From an uncultured Solirubrobacterales bacterium (GTDB lineage: Bacteria > Actinomycetota > Thermoleophilia > Solirubrobacterales > Solirubrobacteraceae), in NCBI GenBank assembly GCA_963724305.1, contig CAVRUG010000004.1, positions 1,437,640 through 1,501,639 on the forward strand: DNA of 64,000 bases. The letters run 5' to 3'. Positions 22,986 to 47,448 of the stretch are shown piece after piece. The notes below the pieces were generated by a model, which saw only the letters and a list, made by a program, of their open reading frames with translations, was not told where the DNA came from and did not search any database. Within the stretch, counting starts at the first letter, position 1; each line of letters starts with the position of its first letter. Made by a program: the position numbers and the translations under genes.

Positions 22986-24038
22986 TCAACACGAGTGTCG
23001 TTCGAGGCCGTCATGTGTGATCTTCCACGTGCCGCTGTAGTCGGTGAGTCTGTAGTAGCCGGTCCACGTGTAGCAACCTGTCTTCCTCGCCACCGTCTGT
23101 AGCGAGCCAACGTCTACCGTGGCTTCGTTCCCTTCGAGCGAGCCCGGTTCGAAGCTGTAGGAGACGCGCTCCACGCCTTCCTTTTCCTCGGCCTGCACCC
23201 ATTCAGATTCGCTGGACCCAGCGCTCGGTTCCTCGATCTGATAAGCCCCGGAGAAGTCGTGGTCTTCGATGTCGCTCCAATAGCTGTCCATTGCGGCGAC
23301 CGCGTGAGCCTCCCGTTCGCTCGGCGATGGCCCAGCCTGCGTTGCGGGCTGCGCAGCAGGTGTAACGGGTGGGGCGGGCGTAGAAGTGTGTGTGGTTGTA
23401 GAAGGCGTGTGGGTTGTTGCGGTTGGCGCGGGCGCGGCGGGCACCGTCTTTTCCACCGTCCTTTCCTTCACCGTGACCGTCGGCGCGTTGTGGTTCTTCG
23501 ATGAGGAGCTGAGCGCGACCGCTGCGCCGGCGCCGAGCAGCGCGACGACGATCGCTCCGATGACGATCGCGCCCGTCGGGTAGCGCCGGCTCGCCGGCGG
23601 CGGAGGCTTCTGCGGTGGTTGCGGCGGTGGCGGCACAGTCGCTGCGGTGGCTGGTTGGGTCGGGGTCGCTGGTGTGAGAACGTGTGTGGCGGTGGTGTTG
23701 GCGGGGCCGTTGACGCAGCCGGTGACGCTGCAGCCTGCGTTGTCCTGCCAGCACTCGTGGTGGTGAACGGTCCCGCAAGCGCCACAGGTCTCGATCGGGG
23801 CGCCCTCCTTCAGCGGGAAGCGGCAGTAGGGACAGACGCGTCCGGTCAGCTCAGGGCCAGCGTTCTGACCGGTCCCCGCGAAGGACGGAGAGCTCGTCCC
23901 GGGTTGAGACGGGAGCGGCGACCACCCGACGTCGCCGGTTTGCTGATGGGCCTGGACGGGGTTGCAGGCGACGCATACGCCCAGCGCGTTGAGCGGGCGG
24001 CCGCAGGCGGTGCAACGGGTATTTGGTTCGGCTGCCAT
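22986..24038 (-). CDS. Zn-ribbon + prokaryotic RING + TM + extracellular (NTF2-like?) domain protein (RING-1)
   Basis: CTAC...CVAC, then CPYC-x12-CGAC-x4-H-x2-CW-x5-C-x4-C, Pro-rich linker, TM (AIVIGAIVVALLGAGAAVAL), Thr/Pro stalk and a C-terminal domain ending WKIT. Confidence 0.85.
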   Translation of the reverse strand: MAAEPNTRCTACGRPLNALGVCVACNPVQAHQQTGDVGWSPLPSQPGTSSPSFAGTGQNAGPELTGRVCPYCRFPLKEGAPIETCGACGTVHHHECWQDNAGCSVTGCVNGPANTTATHVLTPATPTQPATAATVPPPPQPPQKPPPPASRRYPTGAIVIGAIVVALLGAGAAVALSSSSKNHNAPTVTVKERTVEKTVPAAPAPTATTHTPSTTTHTSTPAPPVTPAAQPATQAGPSPSEREAHAVAAMDSYWSDIEDHDFSGAYQIEEPSAGSSESEWVQAEEKEGVERVSYSFEPGSLEGNEATVDVGSLQTVARKTGCYTWTGYYRLTDYSGTWKITHDGLERHSC

Positions 24039-24199
24039 TTCCCCCCGGTTCTCCTGAAGTCAGCGGCAAACCATACCGTAGCCGTGCCGCTCTAGTGGGA
24101 CAGTATGAAAAGTATGTCACGTAGTCCGCGCGTTGCGTGGTCACATCGGCCGCGCGGCCCGTAGCCAAAGATCAAATGATTCAGTGCCACTGAATGCGG

Positions 24200-25213
24200 T
24201 CATGCACAGCCCAGAGCGTGCCGGACCGGGTGGAGGACCCGATGCAGCCAGGTTGCGGTGCGTGTGATCATTTCGATGCCGACGTCGAACGACGACCCCC
24301 CCGGGGGTGGGTGGGCGATGATTGCGACAGCGGTGGCGTTGGCCGTGCCGGGGTCAACAATGCCGGATTGTCTCACGAGGTAGGCTTCGCCTTCCGGCCC
24401 CCACCCGCCCTTGAAGGCGACATGAGCGAAATCGGCCGATCCGAGTCCCCAGCTCTCCGACGGGACGATCTGCTGCATCAAGCTCAAGATGTGCTGCGTG
24501 TGTCGAGGGGGGAGCAGGCAGCCGGCGTCGAGGGCGCTGAAGAACAGCACGGCGCTGCCCGGGGCCCACTCGGTTTGGCCGAACGTGGTGACGGCGCCTG
24601 GCGGCGGGGGTTGGGTTGCAACGACGGTGGCGCGGTCGCCGCTGCGCTGCAACTCCCCTTCAACGGCTTCACTCGCCCCCGCGAGACCCCCCTCGATTGC
24701 TTCCAAGTCGTGAAAGAGGCTGAGGATCGCTTCGTTGCTCGATTCGGTGATCGCCAGTCTGGTCTCTTCCTGCTCTTGGTAGCTGAGTTGGTGCGGTTCG
24801 AGCGCCGTCATGAGAGCCGCGATCACGGGGATCTTCATCGTGCTCCAACCGTGAGCCGCCTCGTCTAGTCCGAAGAGCTTTGGTTTGCCCGCGCCGACGG
24901 GCATCACCGCAACCTCGACGGGGCCCGGGAGCTCGCGCTGCAGCGCGGCGAACGTAACGTCGGCTTCGGGGGCAAGCTCCGTGACCGCTTCGGCCGGGGG
25001 CGCCGGCGCGACTCCCGGCGCTATCGCCGATCGTCGGGCTGTTGCGGTTGTCGGGCTGCTCTCCAGGCCCGTCGTCGTGGTGGTGCGAGCGGCGCCGTTC
25101 GCGGGGTTGCTCACGAAACGTTGCACGATGATCCCGACCGTGAGGCCGCCGAGGAACAGGAGCCCCACGATGAGCAGCACGTTCGTGCGATGGCTTGCGG
25201 GCCGCGGTCTCAC
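24200..25213 (-). CDS. Membrane-anchored serine hydrolase, beta-lactamase/PBP fold
   Basis: SxxK (WSTMK), SxN (ESSNE) and K-G-G-W-G motifs; N-terminal TM; GTG start overlaps the ABC gene stop. Confidence 0.82.
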   Translation of the reverse strand: MRPRPASHRTNVLLIVGLLFLGGLTVGIIVQRFVSNPANGAARTTTTTGLESSPTTATARRSAIAPGVAPAPPAEAVTELAPEADVTFAALQRELPGPVEVAVMPVGAGKPKLFGLDEAAHGWSTMKIPVIAALMTALEPHQLSYQEQEETRLAITESSNEAILSLFHDLEAIEGGLAGASEAVEGELQRSGDRATVVATQPPPPGAVTTFGQTEWAPGSAVLFFSALDAGCLLPPRHTQHILSLMQQIVPSESWGLGSADFAHVAFKGGWGPEGEAYLVRQSGIVDPGTANATAVAIIAHPPPGGSSFDVGIEMITRTATWLHRVLHPVRHALGCA

Positions 25214-27567
25214 TGCGCGGGTCTGGCGAGCATGTGAATGATGCCCGCTACGAGGATCGTGGCGAAGACGGCGCAGATGAGAGCGAAGTCGATGATCGTC
25301 ACGGAGAAGAAGGCGTGGCCATAGTGGTTGATGTGGGAGTAGACGCGGTCTTCGTCGATGCGCTGCTGCATGTTCACGACGTGCCCGGCGGTCGCAAAGC
25401 CCCACCGCGACGGCACGAGCGCAGAGAAGACTTTGACGATCGGCTGCATTTCCTGGTACTGCACGAGCGCGCCACCGAAGAGCAGCTGGGGGACGAGCAG
25501 CAGGGGGATGATCGCCGTGGCTTGGTCCTCAGACGTCGAGACGGCTGAGACCAGGAGACCTAGGAGGGTGGCGATCGAGCCGACCATCACCAAGACCGCG
25601 ACGAAGGCCAGCACCGTCAGGGGTGGTTCGTGCAGGGGACGGAGGACGAGGAGGATCAGCGCGAACAACGTAATCTGTACGGCTGCGAAGGCGAGGAGGA
25701 CGACGAGCTTCGAGGCAAGGTAGGCGGGCAGGCGAACGCCGATCGCGAGCTCCCGATTGAGCACGTTGCGCTCCTTCACGATCTCGCGCGCGGCGTTGAT
25801 CGAGCCGAGCCAGATTGCGATCGTCACCATCAGGAAGACGAGCTGGGCGGACTTGCCCGACCCGTTTGGTTGCGGCGGTGTCACGAAAATCGTGGAGGCG
25901 AAGAGGATCGCCGTGAAGACGCCGAGCACGGGGACCTGGATCAGGGCACTACGGATGTGTTTCCGGTCGCGTAGCACGAGGAGCGCGTAGCGACTCGCAA
26001 GGATCTTCGTCTGGTAGCCGAGCGACTGGCGGACGCGCGGCGGTGTTTGCGGAGCGTCGCGACGAACCGGCGGCAGGGATCGTACGGCCGCCGGCGTCGG
26101 GTGGTTGGGGGCGAGCCGTTCGAGCGCGGAGTAAACGTCGTCGTAGTGGTCAACGCCGAAGGTGGTGAGGAGCTCCCCGGGTGGACCATCGAAGCGCATG
26201 TGACCACCCCGGCCCATGACGATCACGCGATCGTATTGGTGCATACTCCCCGTGGCGTGGGTAACGAGCGCGACGGTTTGGCCGGCGTTGGCGAGCTGAC
26301 GGAAGAGCTCGGTCATGTGGTGCTCGAGCCCGGGGTCGAGTCCCGTGGTGGGCTCGTCGAGGAACAGCGCGCCCGGCCGGTGCAGGAGCTCAACCCCCAC
26401 GGCAACGCGCTTGCGCTGCCCGCCGGAGAGACGACTGACGCGGATGTCGGCACGATCGGCGAGCCCAAGCTCAGCGATCACCTCGTGGACTCGTTCGAGG
26501 CGCTCATGCTCGGCGGTGTCCGGCGGCAGACGCAGGCGAGCAGCGAAGTCGAGCGCCTCCGTGACCGTCAGCTCGTCGTGGACGATGTCGAACTGGGGCA
26601 CGTAGCCGATCTCCGACTGGCGAAGCATCACCGCTTCCCCACCGACGAGCACACTGCCGCCGGTAGGGGCGGAAACACCCGCGAGTGCCTTCAGGAGGGT
26701 ACTCTTGCCGGCACCGGACTCGCCGATGATCGCGACGAGCTCGCCGGCGCGCAGCTGCAGGTCGGTGGGCTGCAGGATCGTCCCGCTCTCCACGTCGACG
26801 CGGACGCCGCTTGCCGCGATCGCAAGACCGGCAGCGACCGCCCGCTCGAACAGCTCCAAGCCGTCGAAGAGGATCCGGTACGGGCCGATCGCGATCTGGT
26901 CGCCGACGTGCAACCGAGTCCTCCGTACGGGTGCGCCGTTGACGCGCACCCCGACGGCGCTGCCGAGGTCGGTGATCGTAGTGGCGGTGCCGTCGGAGTT
27001 GAGGACGGCGTGGTGGAGGGAGATCGTCGGGTGGTCGAGCACGAGGTCACACGCAGGGTCACGACCGATCGTGAATCCGCGCTTGGTTGCGCGGAGTCGC
27101 CCGGCGTCGACCGGCTTGACGGGCGCGAGGCGCGGGAGCCCGTGGCCGGTCGGAAGGTAGTAGAAGCTCGTACCGCCAAGCGCGATCGCGTCACCCCGGC
27201 GGAGCGTGCGGCGCTCCCCGGAGACGAGCAGTTCTCCATTCACGTACGTGGCAGCACGCCCGCCGCGCTCGACGAGCGCGTGACCGTTGTCGGTCGGCTC
27301 GATCGCCGCTTGGATCGGCGCCACGTTGGCGACGCGCACCGTCGCGCTCTCGGCGGCGCCGATCGTGAGGCCGTCGTGAGGGATGGTGAGGCGGCGCTCG
27401 CCGCAGAGCAGCGCCGCGGATTGCAGCGCGACCTCGAGCTCGTCCTCGAAGCCGATAACGAGCGGCCGCGGCGGGGCTCCGGGCAGCGTCTCGAGGTCGA
27501 TCGATGCCTCGCTAGTCGGCCCGGGTGAGCGGATCTTGACTAGCTCGTCATCGGGATTGTCAACCAT
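25210..27567 (-). CDS. FHA-FHA-ABC ATPase-ABC2 permease fusion (Rv1747-like exporter)
   Basis: FTIGRDPACD...TISLHHA FHA; GESGAGKST, LSGGQRKR, FLDEPTTGLD; REIVKER permease motif. Confidence 0.92.
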   Translation of the reverse strand: MVDNPDDELVKIRSPGPTSEASIDLETLPGAPPRPLVIGFEDELEVALQSAALLCGERRLTIPHDGLTIGAAESATVRVANVAPIQAAIEPTDNGHALVERGGRAATYVNGELLVSGERRTLRRGDAIALGGTSFYYLPTGHGLPRLAPVKPVDAGRLRATKRGFTIGRDPACDLVLDHPTISLHHAVLNSDGTATTITDLGSAVGVRVNGAPVRRTRLHVGDQIAIGPYRILFDGLELFERAVAAGLAIAASGVRVDVESGTILQPTDLQLRAGELVAIIGESGAGKSTLLKALAGVSAPTGGSVLVGGEAVMLRQSEIGYVPQFDIVHDELTVTEALDFAARLRLPPDTAEHERLERVHEVIAELGLADRADIRVSRLSGGQRKRVAVGVELLHRPGALFLDEPTTGLDPGLEHHMTELFRQLANAGQTVALVTHATGSMHQYDRVIVMGRGGHMRFDGPPGELLTTFGVDHYDDVYSALERLAPNHPTPAAVRSLPPVRRDAPQTPPRVRQSLGYQTKILASRYALLVLRDRKHIRSALIQVPVLGVFTAILFASTIFVTPPQPNGSGKSAQLVFLMVTIAIWLGSINAAREIVKERNVLNRELAIGVRLPAYLASKLVVLLAFAAVQITLFALILLVLRPLHEPPLTVLAFVAVLVMVGSIATLLGLLVSAVSTSEDQATAIIPLLLVPQLLFGGALVQYQEMQPIVKVFSALVPSRWGFATAGHVVNMQQRIDEDRVYSHINHYGHAFFSVTIIDFALICAVFATILVAGIIHMLARPAQ

Positions 27568-27684
27568 ATCCCCCCCATTCTTGCCTTCCACATCGCCTAA
27601 TCGTATAAGCTGTCGCCGCTATTCAGCCAAGGCCGGTCAGCGCGGGTACCTCCCGTTCATTCGGCCCGAACCAGGAGTTGGGGG

Positions 27685-28326
27685 ATGGACCCGCGTCTGC
27701 GCAGGCTCCAATCGGACTACGAACTCGTGCGGGAGGTGTTCTCGGGGCATCCGCATGTCGCCGTGGAAGCGCTCGGCACGCGGCTGCCGCCGGAGAACTA
27801 CCGTGTCGAGTACCGCCTGCGCGGGCTTTACTTGAACGGTGATCAACCGGCCTACCGGGACGTTCACCACATCGAGGTGATGTTGCCGCGTCGCTACCCC
27901 GCGGAGAAGCCGTACGTGGTGCCGCTTGAGCCGATCTTCCACCCGAACATTCGCGACTATTTCTGCATCGCGGATTACTGGGCGGCCGGGACGACCCTCG
28001 CCGACGTGATCGTGAAGCTCGGCGACATGATCCAATGGCGCGTCTACAACACCGCGAGCCCACTAGACGCAATCGCTGCGCGTTGGGCCGCTGAACAGGA
28101 GTACTCGGGGATCTTCCCGATCGGCAACGTGGATCTCGGCGTTGCCGACTTCGAAATCGCGATCCGCTCGCGCGCGCTCGAGCAACCGATCCCGGCGCCC
28201 GAGACAGCGCCTGCGCTTGCTCCGGTCGCCACTGTGGACGAGGTGGAAGCCGAGCCACCTCCGGCGACCCTCACTGCAAACGACGATGACGATGGCCTCG
28301 TCGTGATGCTGCGCTCGCGCGGGTGA
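27685..28326 (+). CDS. Ubiquitin-conjugating enzyme E2 (UBC fold), copy A
   Basis: RLRRLQSD N-terminal helix, YPAEKP, PIFHPNIRDYFCIAD (HPN plus catalytic Cys), SPLDAIAA; acidic/Pro tail; GGAG RBS. Confidence 0.9.
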   Translation: MDPRLRRLQSDYELVREVFSGHPHVAVEALGTRLPPENYRVEYRLRGLYLNGDQPAYRDVHHIEVMLPRRYPAEKPYVVPLEPIFHPNIRDYFCIADYWAAGTTLADVIVKLGDMIQWRVYNTASPLDAIAARWAAEQEYSGIFPIGNVDLGVADFEIAIRSRALEQPIPAPETAPALAPVATVDEVEAEPPPATLTANDDDDGLVVMLRSRG

Positions 28327-28344
28327 TCAGGAGGGGTCGGGACG

Positions 28345-29502
28345 ATGACCGACAAGAGAAGGATCGTTCTCGGTGAGGAGGACTTCCTCGAAGCGGAGCC
28401 ACCGAGCTCGGCGCCAGCGCCCCCGGTTGCCAGCGCCGCGCCGCCAACACGACCCCTGAGGCCGCCCGCGCCGGACCTCCCGACGGTCACGCGTGGCGTT
28501 CCACGCCGAGTCGACCCCAGCGAACCGGGATTTGCGGCCTCGCCCGGCGGGGCGCCTACGAGCGCGCCGACCTGGATGACGGCGCCGCAAACCGCCCACC
28601 TCGTCGCCGCCGCGGTCGGAATCGTCGGAGGCTGGGCCGTCACTGAAATCACCGGCATCGCGAGCATCGCGGCGCAATCGAGCCTCGGCCTCGACGCAAC
28701 GGCGGGCCTCTGGGTCGGTGTCGTCGGGCTCTTCTTCGGCGGCACGGTACTTGCGTACGACAGCGCGATCGGGGGCGCGTGGGCGGCGGCTCGGAGCCGC
28801 TTCGCGAAAGCGGCGCTGCCGATGTTTGGCGCCTCGTTCGCCGCCGGGTTCCTTGCGCAGGTCGTCTACGGCGAAATCATCAAAGCGATTCTCGAAGAAG
28901 TGTTGCGGGGACAGACAACGGTCGGCGCCAACGACGTGCGCCTGTACCTCGCCCGCGCGCTCGGCTGGGCGTTGTTCGGCATCGGCATCGGCGTCTCCGT
29001 CGGACTACTGCGAAAATCGAACCGCCTGGCGGTCAACGGCGGGATCGGAGGCGCGATCGGTGGAGCTATCGGCGGCGTGATCTTCGAGTACGTGGCCTTC
29101 AACGTCGGGCTCAGCGGAGCCTTGACGCGGCTCGTGGGGCTCACCGCGGTAGGCAGTCTGATCGCAGTCGCGACGCGCGTCGTTGAAACCGCGCGCCGGC
29201 AAGCCTGGCTGCACATCACCGCAGGCGGAATGGCCGGCAAGGAGTTCATCATCTACCACGACGTCACGCGGATCGGCGCCTCGGCGGAGTGCGAGATCTT
29301 CCTCTTGAAGGACCCGGCGGTCGCGAAGCTGCACGCCCAGATCGACGACCGGGATGAGCGCAGGCTGCTCACGGCAATGCCTAACGCGCCCGTCTACGTG
29401 AACGCGCAGCCCGTCCAATCCCACGTCCTGCGCAACGGAGACAAGCTGCGAATAGGAAGCACAACTATTGCGTATTCCGAGCGTGCGGAGGCGGCCGCGT
29501 AG
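28345..29502 (+). CDS. Multi-TM protein with C-terminal FHA domain
   Basis: Pro-rich N-terminus, several Gly-rich TM segments, then GKEFII...RIGASAECEIFLLKDPAVAKLHAQI...VYVN...LRNGDKLRIG. Confidence 0.85.
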   Translation: MTDKRRIVLGEEDFLEAEPPSSAPAPPVASAAPPTRPLRPPAPDLPTVTRGVPRRVDPSEPGFAASPGGAPTSAPTWMTAPQTAHLVAAAVGIVGGWAVTEITGIASIAAQSSLGLDATAGLWVGVVGLFFGGTVLAYDSAIGGAWAAARSRFAKAALPMFGASFAAGFLAQVVYGEIIKAILEEVLRGQTTVGANDVRLYLARALGWALFGIGIGVSVGLLRKSNRLAVNGGIGGAIGGAIGGVIFEYVAFNVGLSGALTRLVGLTAVGSLIAVATRVVETARRQAWLHITAGGMAGKEFIIYHDVTRIGASAECEIFLLKDPAVAKLHAQIDDRDERRLLTAMPNAPVYVNAQPVQSHVLRNGDKLRIGSTTIAYSERAEAAA

Positions 29503-29586
29503 GTTCAACAACGGCGGAGGACGCCCCTCCCTATTGTTCAATATGTAGTGACACAACACACTACTTGTAACCAAAACGGAGGCGAC

Positions 29587-29850
29587 ATGGACCTGACAAT
29601 CGTGGACGCGACTGGCAACAAGGCCGAGGAGGTGAGCGTTCCCGACACCGTCGCCAGCGGTCGCATCGTCGGCCGGCTCGTCCAGTTGCTGCAGCTCCCC
29701 GCGGTGGGGCCGGACGGGCAGCCGCTGTCCTACAAGTTCCACCACAAGCAGTCCGGGCGCCAGATCAACGACAATGAGACCCTCGGCGACGCTGGCGTGA
29801 AAGAAAACGACGTGCTGCGCCTGGTGGCTGAAATCACGGCGGGCGCTTAG
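29587..29850 (+). CDS. Ubiquitin-like beta-grasp protein (EsaB/YukD-like), 87 aa
   Basis: ETLGDAGVKENDVLRLV matches the Ub/YukD TLxDxGIxxGDxLxL pattern; ends EITAG-A; GGAGG RBS; directly upstream of E1. Confidence 0.9.
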   Translation: MDLTIVDATGNKAEEVSVPDTVASGRIVGRLVQLLQLPAVGPDGQPLSYKFHHKQSGRQINDNETLGDAGVKENDVLRLVAEITAGA

Positions 29851-29860
29851 CTCTGCGCAC

Positions 29861-31069
29861 ATGCCGGCGAGCCATGACAGCAAGCGCATCCGAGTCGACG
29901 CCGAGGACGGGCGCTACGACCGCCAGAGCCTGATCACCTGGTGGGACCAGGCGCGGCTGCAGGATGCTCGCGTGCTGGTGGTTGGTGCGGGCGCGCTCGG
30001 GAACGAGATCGTGAAGAATCTCGTGCTCGTCGGCATCGGCACGGTGATCGTTGTCGACCTGGACAGAGTCGAGAGCTCGAACCTCTCGCGCTGCGTGTTT
30101 TTCCGTGCCGAGGACGAGGGGCGCCCGAAGGCGAGGGCGTTGGCGGAGCGCGCCGCGGAGCTGAACCCCAACGTCGAGGTCATCCCGGTCGTCGGCGACG
30201 TCCGGCTCGCGATCGGGCTCGCCGCGTTCGCCGAGGTCAACGTGGTGATCGGCGGACTCGACAATCGCGAAGCGCGCCTGTTCGTCAACCAGGCCTGTTG
30301 GAAGACGACCACGCCGTGGATCGACGGCGCGATCGAGGGCCTGATGGGTGTCGCCAAGGTCTTCATCCCGCCGGATACAGCGTGTTACGAGTGCACGCTC
30401 GGCGAGCGCGACCACGAGTTGCTCGCGGCACGCCGGACCTGCGCGATGCTTAGCCGCGAGGAGATGTTGGCGGGCAAGACGCCGACAACGGCGACCACGT
30501 CGAGCGTGGTTGCGGCGCTGCAGGCGCAAGAGGCGATCAAGCTGCTGCACGCAGATCGCCTCGGAGAACCGGCGCTCGCCGGCAATGGCTACCAGTTTGT
30601 CGGCCTCACGCACGAGTCCTACGTTGTCCGTTACGGCCGCCGGGAGGACTGCTTGAGCCACGATACCTACGCGCGCGACGCCGTCACCGTCGTCGCCCAC
30701 GACGTCGTGTTCGGCGAACTCCTCGCGCTGGCCCGGGAGACGCTCGGCGCGCAGGCGGTGCTCGAGCTCGAGCACGAGCTCGTCGTTAGCGCGTCGTGTC
30801 AGCGGTGCGACATCGCCGAGGAGCTGCTGTGTCCGGTCAACACGCTCGACGCCGGTGCCGGTCTGTGCCCCCGTTGTGGCGAGCCGTGGAGGCTTGAGTT
30901 CGCGCACACGATCGACTGGGCGTCCCCGCTGCTGGAGCGCACAGCGGAGGACCTCGGACTGCCGCCCGGCGACTACGTCGTGGCACGCGAGGGATTTCGT
31001 CGCCGCTTCTATTCGCTCTCGGCGCCCGGAACGGCGCTTGACCTCCTCCGCAGGAAGTCCGTGGCGTGA
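29861..31069 (+). CDS. E1 / ThiF-family Ubl-activating enzyme with C-terminal Zn domain
   Basis: RYDRQ, VVGAGALGNE, DLDRVESSNLSR, GLDNREAR, CYECTL followed by candidate catalytic RRTC, CLSH, and extra CQRC/CPRC. Confidence 0.93.
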   Translation: MPASHDSKRIRVDAEDGRYDRQSLITWWDQARLQDARVLVVGAGALGNEIVKNLVLVGIGTVIVVDLDRVESSNLSRCVFFRAEDEGRPKARALAERAAELNPNVEVIPVVGDVRLAIGLAAFAEVNVVIGGLDNREARLFVNQACWKTTTPWIDGAIEGLMGVAKVFIPPDTACYECTLGERDHELLAARRTCAMLSREEMLAGKTPTTATTSSVVAALQAQEAIKLLHADRLGEPALAGNGYQFVGLTHESYVVRYGRREDCLSHDTYARDAVTVVAHDVVFGELLALARETLGAQAVLELEHELVVSASCQRCDIAEELLCPVNTLDAGAGLCPRCGEPWRLEFAHTIDWASPLLERTAEDLGLPPGDYVVAREGFRRRFYSLSAPGTALDLLRRKSVA

Positions 31070-31938
31070 GCGCGCGACTGGGACGCGTCCCCGTCCAAGC
31101 GGCCGCCGTTCTCGTCGCGGTTGTCGCCCTCGTCGCGATGCTGACGCCGAACGCGGCGTTGGCGGTGCCCTCCCGCATCCTCTCCGCCGCGGAGCACAGC
31201 GTTGCTGCGGCGCAGGGCCCGAACGGAACGACGACCGCGTTTGCGTTCGGCGCCGAAGGCGGCCTGATCGCCGTCGCCACGAGCGGCAAATCGGTCCACG
31301 CCGTGACGAGCAACGGGGGCACAATCAACGGCGATGTGGGAACCGCCCGCGACGGCCTCGGCGTCGCCCACGTCTCGGGGTTGGCGCTACGCCCTCTGCC
31401 AGCCAGCCGCGCGCGAACTGTCTCAGGTCGGACGGCGAAGTACGTGCTCGGTCCTCCCCTCGGCTACGAAGCCGCACGAATCCGGTATGTGCGTACACCC
31501 AGGCTGCCATTGACGCGACTGGGCTTGAGAGTCATTCCCGGCTCCCTGCCGGGCAGCTTCCTCGGCGCGCCGGTGGTCACCGGGCACGGCGCACTGATCG
31601 GCGCCGTTGCCAAAGTGGGTACGCGGAGCTGGGAGTTTGCGCCGCTGGCACTGCTGCGGGAGCTGGCCGCCGTCAAGCACGGAGCATCGACGCCGGTGGC
31701 AGCGATCATCGTTGGGGGGGTGATCGTGTTCCTCCTGGGCGCCGCGTTCGGGATTTGGCGCGTGAGGCATCGCCGCGATCGCGAGCAGGATCTTCATGCT
31801 CGTCAGCGCCGCGCACACGCGACGGAGCCACGCGCTCATGGTCCGCTCGTGCGCTTGCGCACGCCGCCAGAGCCCGAACAGGAATTGGACGCGGAGGACT
31901 TCGAGGTGATCGTGAAGCCGCGGGGGGAGGAAGCGTGA
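31066..31938 (+). CDS. Signal peptide + degenerate trypsin-like domain + TM + cytoplasmic tail
   Basis: GSFLGAPVVTGHGALIGAV aligns with trypsin GNSGGPL...GELIGI but lacks the catalytic Ser; TM AAIIVGGVIVFLLGAAFGIW followed by a basic stretch. Confidence 0.6.
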   Translation: MSARLGRVPVQAAAVLVAVVALVAMLTPNAALAVPSRILSAAEHSVAAAQGPNGTTTAFAFGAEGGLIAVATSGKSVHAVTSNGGTINGDVGTARDGLGVAHVSGLALRPLPASRARTVSGRTAKYVLGPPLGYEAARIRYVRTPRLPLTRLGLRVIPGSLPGSFLGAPVVTGHGALIGAVAKVGTRSWEFAPLALLRELAAVKHGASTPVAAIIVGGVIVFLLGAAFGIWRVRHRRDREQDLHARQRRAHATEPRAHGPLVRLRTPPEPEQELDAEDFEVIVKPRGEEA

Positions 31939-32444
31939 GTCCTCGCGATCGTCGTTTGGCGAGCGATCTGCGGCAGATGCAAGAGCTTGCATCCACGGGC
32001 GGCGTGACCTTCCGGACGGAGAGCAACCCACCTGACCTCTACCACGTGATGTTGGACGAGCAGGGTATCGCGCTCGATTCGAATGGACGACTGGTGCGCC
32101 GCGGTCTGCACCGTTTCGACGCCTACCTGCACCGCGAGTATCCGCGGAGGCCGCCGATCGTCACGTGGTTGACGCCGATCTTCCACCCCAACATTCTCGG
32201 CCCCGAGCGCAACGGGGGGGTGTGTATCGGCAGCTGGAGCGCAGCTGAGAGCCTGGCTGATCTTTGCGTGCGGCTTCGCTCGCTCGTCGCCTACCGCTCG
32301 CTGAACCCTGCGGACGCGCTGAACCGCGAAGCCGGGGAATGGGCGACGCGGCATCACGTCCGCCCCGGCGCGCCGCTCGCGCAGCTCGTGTCTCTAGAGC
32401 TCGATCGGGGATTCGATGTCGCGCTGACGGGGGCGTCGGGATGA
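31935..32444 (+). CDS. Ubiquitin-conjugating enzyme E2 (UBC fold), copy B
   Basis: RDRRLASD, YPRRPP, PIFHPNILGPERNGGVCIGSW, NPADALNREA; GTG start coupled to the previous stop (GTGA) with GGAGG RBS. Hidden inside ORF-track entry 30855..32444. Confidence 0.9.
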   Translation: MSPRDRRLASDLRQMQELASTGGVTFRTESNPPDLYHVMLDEQGIALDSNGRLVRRGLHRFDAYLHREYPRRPPIVTWLTPIFHPNILGPERNGGVCIGSWSAAESLADLCVRLRSLVAYRSLNPADALNREAGEWATRHHVRPGAPLAQLVSLELDRGFDVALTGASG

Positions 32445-33205
32445 GCGTCCGGTTGAAGTCCGCCGCGGGAGGAACGAGGCGCCGCGTACGACGCGGCGAG
32501 GACGGTCCCGAGATCGCCGGGCTGAGAGGCGTGAGCGACGTCACGATCTACCCCCACGTCTTCCGCAATGCGGATCGGGAGGTGGGAGGAGTGCTCATCG
32601 GTCGGCAGTCCGGCGAAGGTGGTTTGCCGCTTGTGACGGGGGCAATCCCCGCGCTCAGCGCGAACGAGCAGAAGGCAACGCTGACGTTCACGCAGGAGGC
32701 TTGGGCGCACGTGCATCAGGTGCTCGAATCGGAGTTTCCCGCCGACGAACAGATCGTCGGCTGGTATCACAGCCATCCGAGTTTCGGCATTTTCCTCTCC
32801 GGGCACGACCTCTTCATCCACGAAAACTTCTTCGACGCGCCGTCGCAGATCGCGGTCGTCGTCGACCCGATCGGCTGCCGCGAGGGCGCGTTCGGGTGGC
32901 GGGAGGGCAAGCTCGTGCCACTTTACGAGCAGGCGACGCCGACGCGTTGGCGAGCGCCCGCCGAGTTGCAGCGTCCCCCTCAGCCTCGCGTCGATGAGAC
33001 CCGCATCGTCGTGGCCGCCGACCGCGCAAGGTTGTCCTCGGCGCGGCTGCTCGCGCTCGTGGCCTTGGTGTCTTGCGTGCTCGTCGTGATCGCCCTGCTC
33101 CTTGTCACGGGCATCCTCGGCGGGTCCGCTAAGAGCGGCGGCGCAGAACACAGCCCGCCGCAACGGCTGCACACGGTGGACACCAACCGGCGGGCACATC
33201 CATGA
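32441..33205 (+). CDS. JAB/MPN+ (JAMM) metallopeptidase with C-terminal TM anchor
   Basis: EVGGVLIG...GWYHSHPSFGIFLSGHD (E...HxHx7Sx2D intact); TM LLALVALVSCVLVVIALLLVTGIL. Confidence 0.93.
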   Translation: MSVRLKSAAGGTRRRVRRGEDGPEIAGLRGVSDVTIYPHVFRNADREVGGVLIGRQSGEGGLPLVTGAIPALSANEQKATLTFTQEAWAHVHQVLESEFPADEQIVGWYHSHPSFGIFLSGHDLFIHENFFDAPSQIAVVVDPIGCREGAFGWREGKLVPLYEQATPTRWRAPAELQRPPQPRVDETRIVVAADRARLSSARLLALVALVSCVLVVIALLLVTGILGGSAKSGGAEHSPPQRLHTVDTNRRAHP

Positions 33206-34080
33206 CGGCGAGGGCCGCAACCCCGACCGACGTGGGCAAGCCGTGCCCGTACTGCCGCTTCCCCTTGAAGGAAGGCGTGCCCGTTGAGGTCTGCGACACG
33301 TGCGGTTCGATCCACCACGCGGAGTGCTGGACCGATGGCAGCGGTTGCGCAGTCTTTGGCTGCCTGGCCGCGGGCGCGGCGATCGCCGCGCCGACAGCCG
33401 CTCCGGGCATAGCGGCGCAAGCTTACGCAGCGCCAACACCGTATCCACAAGCGCTCCCTGCGCCGGATGCTGTGCCAGGAGCCCCGCCGCCACCACCCGC
33501 GCCACCGCTGTCCTACCCGCCGCCGAGCCCCGGGATGCGACCGTTGACGATCGCGTTGGCGGCGGTCGTCGCGCTGATCGGCATCGGCGCCGGGGTCGCC
33601 GTGGCGAGCGGTGCGTTCGGGTCAGGCAACCACCACGCCGTGACGGTTGTAACCGTGCACCAACCGGTGGGGGGCGGCGGCGCGGCAAGGATGACGCCGG
33701 CAGAAGAACAGCAGAAGCGGGGCGCAATCGTCGGGGTGCTGGACGAATACCAGCGTGACTACTCAAGCCACAGCGTATCCGGGCTCGGCAACATATTCGC
33801 GGAAAAAATCAAACGCCACGGCCTCTCGGGATCGGGGTGCAGCGTCGTCGAAGGGCGCCAGCCGGTGTTGGAAGATTACGAACAGCAGTTCAATGCTGGC
33901 ACCGGCACGTACACCCTGGTGGGATTGGGCGCCAACCAGGTGCAACTGCATGGCCCGAGTACGGCGGAAGTGCATTCGCACTATGAAATCTCGCCGGGCG
34001 GATCGGGATTCGTCAACTTCAAGCTCGCGGCGAACGGGAGTGAATGGAAGATCAGTGAAGTCTATGCAACCTGCGCGTGA
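33202..34080 (+). CDS. Prokaryotic RING + TM + extracellular NTF2/SnoaL-like domain protein (RING-2)
   Basis: CPYC-x12-CDTC-x4-H-x2-CW-x5-C-x4-C; Pro-rich linker; TM; C-terminal domain ending EWKISEVYATCA; ATGA-coupled to JAB. Confidence 0.87.
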   Translation: MTARAATPTDVGKPCPYCRFPLKEGVPVEVCDTCGSIHHAECWTDGSGCAVFGCLAAGAAIAAPTAAPGIAAQAYAAPTPYPQALPAPDAVPGAPPPPPAPPLSYPPPSPGMRPLTIALAAVVALIGIGAGVAVASGAFGSGNHHAVTVVTVHQPVGGGGAARMTPAEEQQKRGAIVGVLDEYQRDYSSHSVSGLGNIFAEKIKRHGLSGSGCSVVEGRQPVLEDYEQQFNAGTGTYTLVGLGANQVQLHGPSTAEVHSHYEISPGGSGFVNFKLAANGSEWKISEVYATCA

Positions 34081-34100
34081 ACTAAGGAAAGGCGATCGAG

Positions 34101-34733
34101 ATGCCCGATGAGCTGCCCGGAGTGAACCGGCCGAGCCGGATCGTGATCGATGAGTCCGACCTCGCGCCGGCCGCGCCTGCACCACCCAACCCTGCTCCCC
34201 CCGCTCAGCGGCACGCGCCCGTTCCGGCTCCCGCAGCTCCGCCGCGGCCCGTGCCGCCGTCGTCTCCCGCAGTTGCGGGCACGGCCACAACGGGCCAGGC
34301 ACCAAAGCCGGCGCCGCCGGCGCAACACAAGCCGCCCATGCTCGGCAGCTACTGCTCGGGGTGCGGAGCGCCGCTGCATGAGCAAGCGGTCGTGTGTCTG
34401 CGTTGCGGGGTGCCCACCCGCGGAGCCGCGCAAGCGACGACAGCCGCAATGGGCGTAGCGATGAACTCGAAGTCGACCGCCGCGGCGATCCTGCTCTCGC
34501 TCTTGTTCACCGGGGCCGGCCACTGGTACGTCGGCCGGGTTGGGCGCGGCTTCGCGTTCCTCGCTGCGGCCGTGGTCTCGGGGATCCTGGTGATCGCCGT
34601 TGTCGGGCTCTTCCTGCTTCCCGTCGTTTGGGCATGGGCTGCGATCGATGCGAACAATTGCGCGCGCAAGCACAATGTGGAGCTCCTGCGCCAAGCTGGC
34701 TTCCCCGGCATGCCGCCGACACTCAATGCGTAA
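34101..34733 (+). CDS. Zinc-ribbon + TM2-domain membrane protein
   Basis: CSGCG...CLRCG; KSTAAAILLSLLFTGAGHWYVG TM2 signature; AAGGA RBS. Confidence 0.82.
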   Translation: MPDELPGVNRPSRIVIDESDLAPAAPAPPNPAPPAQRHAPVPAPAAPPRPVPPSSPAVAGTATTGQAPKPAPPAQHKPPMLGSYCSGCGAPLHEQAVVCLRCGVPTRGAAQATTAAMGVAMNSKSTAAAILLSLLFTGAGHWYVGRVGRGFAFLAAAVVSGILVIAVVGLFLLPVVWAWAAIDANNCARKHNVELLRQAGFPGMPPTLNA

Positions 34734-36072
34734 CCCAATCGAGGCCGGGTGGACGGGTGGGTCGTTCGAGACCCGGTGCAGACCCAGGACAAAACGCCGC
34801 CAACCGGCACGGCGGATGGCTGGCATCGCCGTCGGGGTTGCGTGTGTGCTCGGCGTGGCTGCGTGTGGTGGCTCCGGCGACGCGAGCTCGACGGGACGGA
34901 CGATCACGATCACGAGGACGGTGACGCGATCGACCAAGACCGCGAAACCGCTTGCGTCGAAGACAGTGTCGAAGGCAACGCCAAAGCGAAGCGGGGCGAG
35001 CACCGTGCCGGTGGACGCAATGCTGGGCCAAATGATCGTCACCGCCTTCTCGGGCAGCTCGCCGCCGGGCGCGTTGCTCGATCGAATCAGAGCGGGCCAG
35101 GTGGGTGGTGTGATCTTGTTCTCAGAAAACACCGCGGGCGGCGAAGTATCGACGCGCACCGAGGTCGCACAGCTGCAGGCCGCGGCGAGTGCCGGGGGTC
35201 GGCCACCGCTGCTAATCATGACCGACCAGGAGGGCGGCGAGGTGAAGCGGCTCACGTGGGCGCCGCCGTTGCACGCCGCCCAGGAAATGCGTTCCGCCGC
35301 GCTGGCGGAGGCGGAAGGGGAGGCGGCGGGGAGGGCGCTGCGCGCCGTCGGTGTGAACCTCGACCTCGCGCCGGTTGCCGACGTCGAGCGCGTCGCGAAC
35401 TCGTTCCTCGGCACGCGCTCCTTCGGCGACGAATCGCTCGAGGTTGCCGAGCGTGCGTGTGCATTCGCAGAAGGGCTCGCGAGCGCAGGAGTCGGGTTCA
35501 CGCTCAAGCACTTCCCGGGCCTCGGACGGGCCCTCGGGGATACAGACCTGGAACCGGTCACGATCAGCGCCTCAGCCGCGGAGCTTCGCGAGGACTATGA
35601 GGCATACGTGAACTGTGCGTCAAATCCTAATGGCGTGGTGATGGTCAGCAACGGGACCTATCCGTCGCTTACCGGCACCTCGCTGCCAGCGGTGATGTCC
35701 CCCGAGATCTACAAAACCGAGCTCGGCGAGATCGTCGGCTACTACGGCGTCACGATCAGCGACGCTCTCGGGGCGCGCGCTCTCGCGCACGAGCCCGCCG
35801 CGGCTGAGAGCGCGATCAACGCGGGCCTCGACTTGGCGCTCTACGCCGGGACCGAAGAAGAATCGGCCGACGCCTACGCAACCCTCCAAGAAGATATGCG
35901 AGCGGGCGATATCCCGCGTAATCGCGTCGAAGAAGCCTACAACGCGATCGTCGCGCTGAAGACCAAGATCGCCGGGGCGGCGCCGCAGACAACCGCGAAC
36001 GACTCGCAGTCATCGTCCTACTCCGAAAACGCTGGGGCACCCGCAACGATCAGTCCCGGAAAAGGGAAGTGA
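34726..36072 (+). CDS. GH3 NagZ-like beta-N-acetylhexosaminidase, lipoprotein (start uncertain: 34726 or 34816)
   Basis: Lipobox VAAC; GQMIV, GGVILFSEN, DQEGGEVKRL, NLDLAPVAD, RSFG, KHFPGLG, ISDAL. Confidence 0.88.
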   Translation: MRNPIEAGWTGGSFETRCRPRTKRRQPARRMAGIAVGVACVLGVAACGGSGDASSTGRTITITRTVTRSTKTAKPLASKTVSKATPKRSGASTVPVDAMLGQMIVTAFSGSSPPGALLDRIRAGQVGGVILFSENTAGGEVSTRTEVAQLQAAASAGGRPPLLIMTDQEGGEVKRLTWAPPLHAAQEMRSAALAEAEGEAAGRALRAVGVNLDLAPVADVERVANSFLGTRSFGDESLEVAERACAFAEGLASAGVGFTLKHFPGLGRALGDTDLEPVTISASAAELREDYEAYVNCASNPNGVVMVSNGTYPSLTGTSLPAVMSPEIYKTELGEIVGYYGVTISDALGARALAHEPAAAESAINAGLDLALYAGTEEESADAYATLQEDMRAGDIPRNRVEEAYNAIVALKTKIAGAAPQTTANDSQSSSYSENAGAPATISPGKGK

Positions 36073-37301
36073 GAGCAATAACCAAGCATCGGCCCTGGGC
36101 GGTAGTGGGATGCGTGGCGGTGATTGCAGGCTTGGGCGTGTCGGTGGGCATTGCGATCGCCGACACGGGCGCCGAAACTGGTGGAACCGCCGCACCTGAA
36201 GGTACCGTTGAAGGCACCCAGCCGATCGCAACGACCACTGCGAGCTCCACCGCGGCGACGCCCGTCGTCAGCCCACCCACCCGAGCCCCAGCTGCGGGAA
36301 AGCTGACGCTTGGTCAGGCCGTCGGGCAGATGCTGATCAGCCACGTCACCGGTCTGAGCGCATCATCGGCGCTCCTGAAGAGGATTCGCGCAGGCCAGGT
36401 CGGAAGCGTGATCCTCTACTCCGAAAACATCTCGACCATCAGCCAACTCACCGCGCTGACCGCGGCACTGCAGGGCGCAGCCCGCGACGGACACAACCCG
36501 CCGCTGTTCATCGGCACCGACCAAGAGGGCGGCCCGGTGAAGCGACTGGCGGACGCACCCCCGTGGCTGTCAGCCGCACAGATGGGCGCCACCCGCCACG
36601 TGAAGTCCGTCGCCCAAGCCGAAGGCCGCGCGGCCGGCCGAGCACTTCTCAAGGCCGGCGTCAACCTCGACTTCGCCCCGGTCGCGGACATCCCGACAAG
36701 CGCCGACAACTTCCTCGGCGAACGGGCCTTCGGCGAGAAAGCACGAACCGTCGAAGAAGGCGTCACAGGCTTCGCCACCGGCCTTGAGGAAGCTCATATC
36801 GCCGGCAGCGTCAAGCACTTCCCGGGCCTGGGCGGAGCCGGACCACGCGACACCGACACCGAAGTGGTGACGATCGACTTGTCCGAGTCGCAGTTGAGAT
36901 CGGCGTGGGCGCCGTACCGCGCTGTTGCCAAACTCGGGGCGATGATCGCGCCCTTCGTGATGGTGTCGAACGCCATCTACCCAGCACTCAACCACTCGCA
37001 GCTCCCCGCCGACCTGTCATCGACTGTCGTCCGCAACGAGCTCGCTAGCACGGGCCTCGGGAACCGGGTCACGGTCACCGACGACCTCGAGGTGCCGGCG
37101 ATTGAGCGCTACTCGGATGCTGCAGTAAAAGCCGTACGTGCCGGCATTGATCTCCTGATGTTCGCGCAGGAAGAAGCCGCGTCGGAACGCGCGTTCGACG
37201 AGATCGTGGCCGCTGTGAAGACGGGAGCCCTCACAAGCACCGATGTGATTGCCGCCGCAGATCGCGTCGTCGCGTTGAAGTCCGCACTCGGCCTAGGCTG
37301 A
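36069..37301 (+). CDS. Second GH3 NagZ-like glycosidase, exported/anchored
   Basis: N-terminal hydrophobic segment; DQEGGPVKRL, NLDFAPVAD, KHFPGLG, VTDDL; GTGA-coupled to the first GH3. Confidence 0.88.
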   Translation: MRAITKHRPWAVVGCVAVIAGLGVSVGIAIADTGAETGGTAAPEGTVEGTQPIATTTASSTAATPVVSPPTRAPAAGKLTLGQAVGQMLISHVTGLSASSALLKRIRAGQVGSVILYSENISTISQLTALTAALQGAARDGHNPPLFIGTDQEGGPVKRLADAPPWLSAAQMGATRHVKSVAQAEGRAAGRALLKAGVNLDFAPVADIPTSADNFLGERAFGEKARTVEEGVTGFATGLEEAHIAGSVKHFPGLGGAGPRDTDTEVVTIDLSESQLRSAWAPYRAVAKLGAMIAPFVMVSNAIYPALNHSQLPADLSSTVVRNELASTGLGNRVTVTDDLEVPAIERYSDAAVKAVRAGIDLLMFAQEEAASERAFDEIVAAVKTGALTSTDVIAAADRVVALKSALGLG

Positions 37302-37397
37302 TATGCCGCCCCGGTGCAAGCGAGGGGCCAGACCCAATCGGACCGAACTCACGCGATCGGATCACCAGCCCCGGTCCCGCACCGGAGCACGAGGAGC

Positions 37398-38345
37398 TCA
37401 TTCGCATTCCGATGTGAACGAGTTGGCCACCGCACGAAACGTCGGCCGTATCGCATCGAAGCTTGAGGGGGTCGCGGAGCCAAGCACGGCCACGGTGTTG
37501 CTGCAGGTCTCGAAGAAGTAGTCAATCCGCTCGTTGCCTTCGACTTCGAAGATCCACATCCACGATTCGGAATGCCGAGACAAGTCTCCGGGACCGTAAT
37601 AGATCTGGGTGTAGCCAGGCTGCTTCGCGAGCTCTTCACGCACTGGTTCGGCACCTTCGCGCATCGTTATATGAGTTGGTGTGTGCACGTCAAGCAAGAC
37701 ATATTCACTTGAGCCGGATGGATTGGACCACTTCGATTCAACTTCTGCTCCCAACTGCTTTTCATCGACATCCTGGACCCAGCCCGAGGGGATCATCATG
37801 GAGAAGTAGGAACCCGAGTAGGACCGCAGACTTGACGTGCTCGGAGTCTCCGGCTGAGACGAGGTGCCGCTCGGGAGTTCCTTCGGAGAGGTCGTCAACG
37901 TAGTCCGAGCGGAGTTCGCGTTGGACGCATCCGTCTTCACCAGCTCGGTCGTCGTCGAGCCATGACTGTTGTTTTTGCCGATCACGAATGCGAGCGTGAC
38001 GCCCAGGACGAGAATCGCGAGCAGTGAGACGAAGAGCGCCCCGTTACGCGAGCGGTCGCGGGGTTGGCGGCCGGTGGGCGCGTGGCCGAGCGCAGACTGG
38101 CTGCTGGGGGGCGTCAGCGGGACCGATGGAGCCTGCATCCGCTGCGTCTGCGGCTCCGAAGGTCGAACGCTGGTTGAGCCCGGTCCGCTTGCGCAGGCGA
38201 TGATCGCACAGCCGTGGTTGTCAGTCCAGCACTCCGCGTGGTGCGGAGAGTTGCAGGTCGGGCAGATCGTGACGTCGCCGTCCTCCTTGATTGGGAAGCG
38301 ACAATACGGGCAGTGCCGTCCGGCTATGACAGGGGATGCTTTCAA
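37398..38345 (-). CDS. Prokaryotic RING + TM + extracellular PsbP/DcrB-like domain protein (RING-3)
   Basis: CPYC-x12-CPTC-x4-H-x2-CW-x5-C-x4-C; TM ALFVSLLAILVLGVTLAFVIG; FSMMIPSGW...FRAVANSF is typical of the PsbP-like fold. TTG start uncertain. Confidence 0.83.
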   Translation of the reverse strand: MKASPVIAGRHCPYCRFPIKEDGDVTICPTCNSPHHAECWTDNHGCAIIACASGPGSTSVRPSEPQTQRMQAPSVPLTPPSSQSALGHAPTGRQPRDRSRNGALFVSLLAILVLGVTLAFVIGKNNSHGSTTTELVKTDASNANSARTTLTTSPKELPSGTSSQPETPSTSSLRSYSGSYFSMMIPSGWVQDVDEKQLGAEVESKWSNPSGSSEYVLLDVHTPTHITMREGAEPVREELAKQPGYTQIYYGPGDLSRHSESWMWIFEVEGNERIDYFFETCSNTVAVLGSATPSSFDAIRPTFRAVANSFTSECE

Positions 38346-41603: not shown

Positions 41604-41761
41604 GCCCTCATTGTCGCATGCCCGCCAACGTCTTCTCCGCAATAGAGACGCTCACTCGTGGAGCATAGAGCCCCCAGCGATCGCCGAATCGAATGGGCTT
41701 CTCGAGGTCTCGGCATTCGCGGGGTGAAGCCGCGCAAGATAGCGCGGGGAGACTGAGACTC

Positions 41762-47405: not shown

Positions 47406-47448
47406 AACTCCAAATTCTTGGAGAAATTTGGAGTTATTTGGAGTTGGG
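47406..47448. repeat. ttggag-repeat block, left flank of the Fic fragment
   Basis: aactccaaattcttggagaaatttggagttatttggagttggg; a similar direct copy lies at 48283-48324. Confidence 0.8.

Follow-up and report, generated by a model that had tools for sequence, protein, structure and literature searches.

We analyzed a 64,000-nucleotide stretch of DNA (the window) from an uncultured soil bacterium of the Solirubrobacterales, which carries at positions 22986..38345 a cassette of 15 genes encoding a ubiquitin-like protein (Ubl), an E1, two E2s, three RING proteins, and a JAB peptidase, together with an ABC exporter, wall enzymes, and other membrane proteins (Table 1). The gene layout, strands, and overlaps proposed for this block in the original prediction, a reading of the sequence made without database searches, were confirmed: 15/15 open reading frames (ORFs) are present and uninterrupted, with tight or overlapping junctions that include 4-nt overlaps along the E1/trypsin-like/E2b/JAB/RING-b series, between GH3a and GH3b, and between the ABC and PBP genes. 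Starts were corrected for the Ubl (29587), PBP-like (25213), and ABC (27567) genes. The expected lack of frameshifts also held, and contigs from three public DNA runs of a single study, which may represent the source sample, had zero indels across the cassette stretch. A scan for promoters and terminators gave a result at chance level. In the source genome (G000), the only copies of the Ubl, E2, JAB, RING, PBP-like, and GH3 genes all lie within the cassette; no kinase gene is present inside it, and the ten kinase matches of this genome are all located elsewhere.

Table 1. Genes of the cassette in window coordinates (TM, transmembrane segment; SIM, SUMO-interacting motif)
Gene	Position	Strand	Features
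RING-a	22986..24038	-	zinc-ribbon-like N-terminus, Prok-RING_1, Pro-rich linker, one TM, NTF2/SnoaL-like outer domain, conserved Cys pair
PBP-like	24200..25213	-	membrane-anchored class A beta-lactamase/PBP-like serine hydrolase; SxxK, SxN, and KGG motifs present
FHA-FHA-ABC	25210..27567	-	FHA (degenerate)-FHA-ABC ATPase-ABC2 permease; Rv1747-type architecture
E2a	27685..28326	+	UBC fold, HPN and C94, disordered tail with acidic SIM-like motifs
TM-FHA	28345..29502	+	multi-pass membrane protein, C-terminal pseudo-FHA (no phospho-Thr Arg/Ser); E2 fusion in clostridial relatives
Ubl	29587..29850	+	YukD-like ubiquitin-like protein, 87 aa, invariant Ala85-Gly86 and one-residue tail
E1	29861..31069	+	single ThiF-type adenylation domain, invariant C194 in mobile loop, beta-rich C-terminal domain with two CxxC
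pseudo-trypsin-TM	31066..31938	+	signal/TM, trypsin-like domain without catalytic serine motif, TM, cytoplasmic tail with acidic motif
E2b	31935..32444	+	UBC fold, HPN and C97
JAB-TM	32441..33205	+	JAB/JAMM peptidase, C-terminal TM, short outer tail
RING-b	33202..34080	+	Prok-RING_1, Pro-rich linker, TM, NTF2-fold outer domain common to receptor Ser/Thr kinases
TM2	34101..34733	+	zinc ribbon and TM2-like membrane protein (weak Pfam match); accessory
GH3a	34726..36072	+	exported NagZ-like glycosidase, probable lipoprotein; start 34726 or 34816; Asp replaces catalytic His
GH3b	36069..37301	+	membrane-anchored NagZ-like glycosidase; same His-to-Asp variant as GH3a
RING-c	37398..38345	-	Prok-RING_1, linker, TM, outer domain common to receptor Ser/Thr kinases

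Most of the domains named beforehand were recovered by Pfam: ThiF in E1 (6e-54), YukD in Ubl (5e-8), JAB (4e-11), UQ_con in E2b (1e-10), Prok-RING_1 in three proteins (2e-8, 2e-7, and 2e-10, all above cut-off), FHA in two proteins, and Glyco_hydro_3 in two, along with ABC_tran plus ABC2_membrane and Beta-lactamase2 (2e-5). Two assignments fell below the cut-off, namely UQ_con in E2a (1e-5; curated cut-off) and TM2 (2e-4). The trypsin-like protein had no Pfam match and was assigned through an iterated profile joining it to Trypsin_2-positive relatives. Relatives were also collected in a wider survey of the best 80 of 577 genome matches and 34 metagenome matches, using profiles seeded from this window; locus counts refer to loci of at least 10 kb, with 10 kb taken per side and two duplicates dropped. 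Hydropathy placed membrane segments in all non-core proteins and in JAB, and anchoring is family-wide (RING with TM, 101/109; JAB-TM, 84/90 loci), in agreement with the membrane-centered character first proposed.

The catalytic motifs of the conjugation enzymes, read as intact from the outset, were all found in place. The E1, with one ThiF domain in 402 aa, carries GxGxxG at 42 and C194, the latter invariant across 61 aligned relatives; in its model (pLDDT, a per-residue confidence score, of 93), C194 lies in a low-confidence loop and the C-terminal domain is beta-rich. E2a has HPN86 with C94, E2b has HPN84 with C97, JAB has E47, HSH110, and a downstream D, and all three RINGs are C4HC3-type. 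Across the family, the E2 Cys is kept in 99/108 copies and the JAB motif in 119/121 (related loci, hence non-independent counts). Ala-Gly occurs in 107/108 Ubl copies, of which 43 end at this Gly, 58 extend 1-12 residues further, and 6 are fusions; the Ubl of the cassette has one residue beyond Ala-Gly, which must be removed. The best sequence matches of E1, E2, and Ubl were eukaryotic E1s and E2s and archaeal ubiquitin-like proteins, and the Ubl profile weakly matched the Caldiarchaeum ubiquitin-like structures 6fj7 and 2mqj (E ~0.003); no solved structure was found for this E1, E2, or Ubl family. By the known chemistry of the E1, E2, and JAMM families, the cassette is predicted to encode a complete ubiquitin-like toolkit for adenylation, thioester relay, maturation, and removal.

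The core varies among other phyla. Eight planctomycete loci (L058, L064, L065, L072, L078, L087, L089, and L091) encode an additional, UEV-like E2 that has no catalytic Cys, along with an additional JAB that is soluble, and two Armatimonadota loci (L022 and L026) each carry a pair of Cys E2s corresponding to the two types found in the cassette. Clostridial Ubls (L034, L044, L051, L053, L060, and L067) are fused past Ala-Gly to a zinc ribbon and/or a TM protein; JAB would have to release such membrane-tethered precursors.

We then focused on the RING proteins, each of which consists of a RING, a Pro-rich linker, one TM, and an outer domain that is folded, contains a conserved Cys pair, and probably faces the outside of the cell. 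The outer domains of RING-b and RING-c were searched against 301 genomes of the order. For RING-b, 15 matches were detected in 14/301 genomes, on RING-TM (3), kinase-TM (7), and zinc-ribbon-TM (3) proteins, with 2 unassigned; 2 of the 7 kinase-TM matches were members of the query alignment, and a kinase outside the alignment matched with 37% identity over 120 aa (E 2e-26). The RING-c outer domain, whose query alignment included no kinase, also gave 15 matches: 4 on RING-TM, 6 on kinase-TM, and 2 on zinc-ribbon-TM proteins, 2 adjoining or within a broken kinase, and 1 with none of these. The kinases bearing these domains were confirmed by Pfam, and pairwise identity to the kinase outer domains was 23-44% for RING-b and 24-37% for RING-c. 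The RING-b outer domain was modeled as an NTF2-like pocket fold (pLDDT 91, TM-score 0.74-0.76); that of RING-c, which has no Pfam match, is PsbP-like by our own reading. In the loci at hand, the RING-a outer domain was found only on RING, zinc-ribbon, and exported proteins, and atlas searches with this domain and with the membrane part of TM-FHA returned only hypothetical-protein clusters, with a SnoaL-like lead at 0.89. Longer proteins bearing the RING-b or RING-c outer domain were not recovered by word-index searches, an insensitive method given that such kinases exist. A single RING clade was not rejected in the RING-b domain tree (p-AU 0.12) and was rejected in the RING-c domain tree.

PBP-like relatives are present in 40/301 genomes, and among ten of their neighborhoods without the system, three have adjoining receptor Ser/Thr kinases, 2 of which end in the RING-b outer domain. 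In four loci (L133, L134, L136, and L160), this PBP-like gene adjoins kinase genes, and FHA-FHA-ABC is present too in L133 (FHA-HTH, kinase, PBP-like, FHA-FHA-ABC) and L134 (kinase, PBP-like, FHA-FHA-ABC, kinase), a layout known from the PknF-Rv1747 pair. The cassette retains the PBP-like gene, the exporter, and the receptor bodies, with a RING standing where relatives have a kinase; a related locus in genome G107 has both. RING copy number reaches 2-5 per locus. In L102, two RING-TM proteins end in SPOR domains (one above and one below cut-off), and LysM ends 3/10 JAB proteins scanned from other phyla. SPOR and LysM are peptidoglycan-binding families. These fusions and the kinase-shared ectodomains back the link to the envelope that had been proposed for the block.

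Further RING and kinase genes were observed in relatives. Within the G107 cassette (L013:3032-5128 and 8644-9657) are a receptor Ser/Thr kinase whose linker bears an acidic SIM-like motif, an FHA-HTH regulator, and a membrane-anchored Amidase_3. Elsewhere in G107, two genes with RING-TM-outer-domain layout (L139 and L140; G107:C1 ~2213500 and ~181300) lie far from the Ubl operon, one of them beside a GH3 gene, and could be satellite receptors using that operon in trans. A fourth RING-TM gene adjoins the cassette in L113 (L113:575-2179); its outer domain has no Pfam match and is beta-propeller-like by our own reading.

Within the order, E1 relatives were found in 5/301 genomes and Prok-RING_1 in the same 5, with none lacking E1; the cassette occurs in 2/15 other genomes of the genus, and its named close relatives are Solirubrobacteraceae. 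The entire block is syntenic in G188, L014, and L113 (72-79% nucleotide identity), and homology does not extend past its borders, indicating that the cassette occupies different chromosomal sites in these three. The original view of the block as one conserved unit rather than a chance neighborhood was thereby upheld. In the same three relatives, an extra LmeA-like gene lies between the ABC and PBP-like genes (L007:4026-4742, L014:4614-5336, and L113:4608-5330); it is cleanly missing in the window, where these two genes overlap. E1 relatives were absent from plasmid and phage collections, and viral contigs gave one partial E1 match, without any other system gene.

In the wider survey, 16 loci were of actinobacterial type, 8 of them assigned by E1 identity rather than by name, and related loci among them are not independent. 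Ubl, E2, and JAB are present in all 16, RING in 15, two E2s in 9, FHA-ABC in 11, TM-FHA in 10, PBP-like in 10, GH3 in 7, trypsin-like in 6, and TM2 in 4. The 60 loci of other phyla have Ubl in 56, E2 in 54, JAB in 59, RING in 40, TM-FHA in 30, trypsin-like in 24, FHA-ABC in 1, and neither PBP-like nor GH3; a PBP-like or GH3 gene is thus present in 14/16 versus 0/60 loci. These counts indicate that the core with TM-FHA and trypsin-TM spans phyla, and that the wall enzymes and exporter are an actinobacterial addition. The same core was found in Actinobacteria, Planctomycetes, and Acidobacteria, as well as Bacillota, Armatimonadota, and Verrucomicrobiota, and its parts are joined in fusions (E2-TM-FHA in Clostridia, RING-TM-trypsin, and FHA-RING). 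Among the loci, envelope and RING genes are intermixed in several arrangements. The GH3s and TM2, initially read as part of the operon, proved to be accessory (7/16 and 4/16 actinobacterial loci), and GH3 relatives occur in 115/301 genomes of the order.

Several partner proteins are degenerate. The TM-FHA protein of the cassette lacks the phosphothreonine-binding Arg and Ser of its FHA, and both residues are kept in 1/49 TM-FHA copies versus 8/11 other FHAs in the loci; judging from these residues, the domain is a pseudo-FHA throughout the family. In the FHA-FHA-ABC exporter, the second FHA retains Arg, Ser, and His, and the first is degenerate. The trypsin-like serine motif is absent in 10/12 actinobacterial-type copies and kept in 30/31 others, and the PBP-like protein keeps all three active-site motifs. 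In NagZ enzymes, a KHFPG motif precedes Asp-Ser/Thr-His. The Asp nucleophile motif is preserved in both GH3s, but the NagZ catalytic His is replaced by Asp in these two, as in all 11 GH3s of the loci; GH3a and GH3b read Asp-Thr-Asp, and score 117 and 110 bits with the NagZ NCBIfam model, below its cut-off of 207.

In the tails of the E2s, trypsin-TM, TM-FHA, and E1, we observed short hydrophobic strands flanked by acidic residues. Such a strand with an acidic flank is characteristic of SIMs, which bind the beta2/alpha1 groove of the modifier, and which the SUMO E1 and SENPs carry on flexible extensions (PMC12687455). We scored the motifs, defined after seeing the data, with a position-specific matrix trained on 13 non-actinobacterial trypsin tails. 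Scores of at least 8 bits were reached in 18/19 E2-TM-FHA linkers (shuffled mean 3.0), 19/77 free E2 tails (4.8), and 4/9 actinobacterial trypsin tails (0.4), and at chance level in E2 cores (5/108), E1 ends (8/104), and genome controls (27/894); some matches fall inside folded or exported domains, and the pseudo-trypsin tail of the cassette itself stays at or below 6.5 bits. A second acidic pattern was detected in 22/51 TM-FHA N-regions versus 1.9 after shuffling. The tail motifs resemble SIMs and are putative Ubl-binding sites. A complex prediction for Ubl and the pseudo-trypsin tail (0.29 versus a mark of 0.32) was not used as evidence.

The core itself has been described before: a 2011 study predicted E1-E2-RING-JAB operons in bacteria, and the initial impression of an unrecognized architecture does not hold for it. 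Burroughs, Iyer and Aravind (2011; Mol Biosyst 7:2261) reportedly noted TM-fused RINGs, and the text or supplements of that paper and of a 2012 review may list some of the partners named here. Citing Burroughs 2011, Zuin et al. (PMC4197634) mention uncharacterized operons of Actinobacteria, Planctomycetes, and Acidobacteria related to the Caldiarchaeum E1-E2-RING-Rpn11 cluster, and Chambers et al. (PMC10557695) mention rare bacterial RING-type E3s together with uncharacterized families predicted to be antiviral. Our literature search, with limited coverage of subscription papers, found no experimental study of RING operons and no report of ectodomains shared between RINGs and kinases.

Tri-ligase Ubl operons (Prok-RING_1, PF14446) likewise combine Ubl, E1, E2, JAB, and a C4HC3 RING in one operon with sporadic distribution, and the features of that class (catalytic Cys of E1 and E2, JAMM motif, and terminal Gly in Ubl) are present in the cassette. 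Relative to the class as its accessible descriptions give it, the cassette has in addition two cysteine E2s, pseudo-trypsin, FHA-FHA-ABC, PBP-like, GH3, and kinase-type RING outer domains. The FtsH vWA-MoxR ternary systems with a tri-ligase module are predicted conflict systems in which Ubl/E2 and a prokaryotic RING occur with JAB and E1 (Kaur et al. 2020, PMC7159879), whereas the cassette has no MoxR, vWA, FtsH, EAD1, or caspase, and its Ubl and E2 are separate genes. The Caldiarchaeum subterraneum ubiquitin (Ub) operon (Ub, E1, E2, small RING, and Rpn11) covers the same five functions, and its ubiquitin precursor is trimmed by a JAMM enzyme (PMC6043591); by contrast with that soluble system, which uses a di-Gly ubiquitin in a proteasome-bearing host, the cassette has a single Ala-Gly end, is membrane-anchored, and no proteasome was found in its host. 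PknF-Rv1747-type kinase modules share with the cassette the FHA-FHA-ABC architecture of the exporter, single-pass receptors with a Pro-rich linker, homologous outer domains, and a PBP-like neighbor. In those modules, as far as the sources describe them, the output domain is a kinase, whereas in the cassette it is a RING, no kinase is present, and most FHA domains are degenerate.

BilABCD (Type I/II), defined along with Bub by Ye et al. (10.1101/2024.11.21.623953), resembles the cassette in its separate Ubl, cysteine E2, JAB, and cysteine E1, and its JAB exposes a single C-terminal Gly (10.1101/2024.11.21.623953; PMC11354881). Bil is described as soluble and without an E3, and has an IAD-AAD-CYS E1, whereas the cassette has three RING genes and an E1 with one adenylation domain, which matches BilD over 113 residues only (2e-8); we rejected this assignment on the single ThiF domain and the three RING genes. 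The accessible text of Gong et al. (10.1101/2024.11.21.623966) mentions neither RING nor membrane. Bub (6E/DUF6527) was rejected on the absence of a DUF6527 match and of Ubl-E2/JAB-E1 or E2-E1 fusions, and on the presence of Cys rather than Ser/Tyr oxyester residues; Type II CBASS Cap2/Cap3 was rejected on the absence of a nucleotidyltransferase (CD-NTase) match and the separate E1 and E2. Type VII secretion YukD/EsaB, an unconjugated Ubl with FtsK-like ATPase and WXG100 neighbors (PMC1779556), was rejected because neither neighbor was found among 16 proteins scanned. ThiS/MoaD sulfur transfer was rejected on the presence of E2s and RINGs and on NCBIfam ThiF/MoeB scores far below cut-off. Taken together, the cassette is an intact member of the predicted class, in a variant that ties RINGs to receptor-kinase sensor domains and to a wall-enzyme/exporter module; its additions are the kinase-shared outer domains, wall-enzyme genes, two cysteine E2s, pseudo-trypsin, pseudo-FHA, and SIM-like motifs.

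With a probability of about 0.5, we favor the interpretation that the three single-pass RING proteins are receptor E3 ligases that sense an envelope cue and trigger tagging of membrane-associated partners, likely in the role that receptor Ser/Thr kinases have in related bacteria, with tagging in place of phosphorylation. Given the invariant Ala-Gly end, JAB would clip the single residue after Gly86 of Ubl; E1 would adenylate Ubl, form a thioester at C194, and hand it over to C94 of E2a or C97 of E2b. Ligand binding to the outer domains, or their clustering, would cause the cytoplasmic RINGs to activate membrane-localized E2~Ubl. We infer that the RINGs act as E3s, that the outer domains sense an envelope ligand, and that the targets are membrane-associated; likely targets or readers would be the FHA-ABC exporter, pseudo-FHA protein, pseudo-trypsin, and wall hydrolases of the cassette itself, with the acidic SIM-like tail motifs binding Ubl and holding partners together, and the membrane-bound JAB reversing the tag. 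The outcome is likely to be regulatory rather than proteasomal, because no proteasome subunit was found in 5/5 system-bearing genomes (four of them 94-100% complete, and the source genome 76%). A stronger version, in which these are true bacterial receptor ubiquitin ligases, is tentative and, taken whole, somewhat unlikely: a RING E3 would have taken the place of the kinase in a Ser/Thr-kinase envelope module, and a Ubl mark read via SUMO-style motifs and erased by a membrane JAMM enzyme would control peptidoglycan hydrolases and the ABC exporter; this would be ubiquitin signaling of the eukaryotic style, starting at the bacterial cell surface and outside both defense and proteasomal degradation.

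Several observations weigh against the receptor-ligase interpretation. The conjugation chemistry of the family is itself a prediction from sequence. The outer domains also occur on plain zinc-ribbon-TM proteins, which marks them as mobile modules, so that their sharing shows a common type of input and not E3 activity, and the trees are compatible with a RING/kinase swap in either direction. Within 10 kb per side, wall-enzyme genes are absent in 60/60 non-actinobacterial loci and RING in 20/60, making the link to envelope enzymes lineage-specific, and the underlying counts come from related, non-independent loci. GH3 activity seems doubtful because the catalytic His is replaced. Finally, the patchy, mobile distribution would fit defense equally.

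An anti-phage or anti-invader role is unlikely but deserves weight. The membrane RINGs would sense phage adsorption, DNA entry, or lysis enzymes, and Ubl would be put on phage proteins or a host effector, as in Bil. Bil and CBASS are precedents, Chambers et al. (PMC10557695) state uncharacterized RING-containing operon families as predicted antiviral, the cassette is found in only 2/15 other genomes of the genus, its insertion sites differ, and in Clostridia an integrase, IrrE-like peptidases, and a TIR-Sel1 gene are located nearby. However, only 8/150 flanking proteins of actinobacterial loci matched PADLOC (1e-12), mostly through generic ABC, methyltransferase, or kinase domains; the Ubl, E2s, and RINGs matched no PADLOC model, and the partners are wall hydrolases and an exporter that elsewhere accompany kinases. 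The envelope-signaling and defense interpretations can overlap, since phage attack is an envelope event.

Membrane-protein quality control, in which RINGs would tag damaged membrane proteins for removal by a protease in a manner resembling endoplasmic-reticulum-associated degradation, is improbable. The catalytic motif of the trypsin-like partner, kept in nearly all non-actinobacterial copies, and the link of related tri-ligase systems to FtsH and Pup, with degradation suggested (Kaur et al., PMC7159879), would suit it, but this motif is lost in the cassette and most actinobacterial-type copies, Pfam detected no AAA+ gene in the cassette, the proteasome was not found, nor was a Pup ligase in the source genome (76% complete), and the system is absent from most relatives.

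We give little credence to the idea that the RINGs are mere zinc-binding adaptors swappable with zinc ribbons, with E3-free conjugation targeted to the membrane via the E2/TM-FHA link. The occurrence of the same outer domains on zinc-ribbon-TM proteins and the 20/60 non-actinobacterial loci with no RING within the fetched stretch fit this idea, as does Bil, which works without an E3 (10.1101/2024.11.21.623953). Against it, Prok-RING_1 occurs in no genome of the order that lacks E1, and the RING copies are expanded. An archaeal RING cascade has reportedly been reconstituted, which also counts against it. A chance juxtaposition of a small Ubl operon with envelope genes unrelated to it is very improbable despite the spread of PBP-like and GH3 relatives in the order, and for the block as an inherited unit it is refuted by the synteny that ends at the block borders, the confinement of the PBP-like and GH3 copies of the source genome to the cassette, and the interleaving of envelope and RING genes.

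According to the accessible literature, the tested bacterial Ubl pathways (CBASS Cap2, Bil, and Bub) have no E3, and CBASS Cap2 and Bil serve phage defense. RING-containing operons have been predicted since 2011, and the cassette offers a handle on what they respond to: because the outer domains are common to receptor kinases, kinase/RING chimeras and ligand screens become possible, and the two cysteine E2s and three RINGs provide material for E2-E3 pairing. If the receptor-ligase interpretation is true, receptor-triggered ubiquitin signaling with SIM-like readers is not a eukaryotic invention.

Just beyond RING-a, the window encodes an exported 219-aa protein (22229-22888), which had no family match and no relative in the fetched loci and was left out of the cassette. 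No tRNA was found in the window. Remnants of an IS21-family transposase (Mu-transpos_C_2 and IstB) lie at 12999-15570, ~7 kb from the cassette, and scattered through the window (6744-9641, 17037-17438, 41063-41642, 47437-48273, and 57783-58257) are an AAA_14/DUF4143 gene in two ORFs, two Fic genes, a MazF-like toxin, an unannotated toxin-antitoxin-like pair, and a HicAB pair. A short tandem repeat at ~4369-4551 encodes a seven-residue repeat in one frame.

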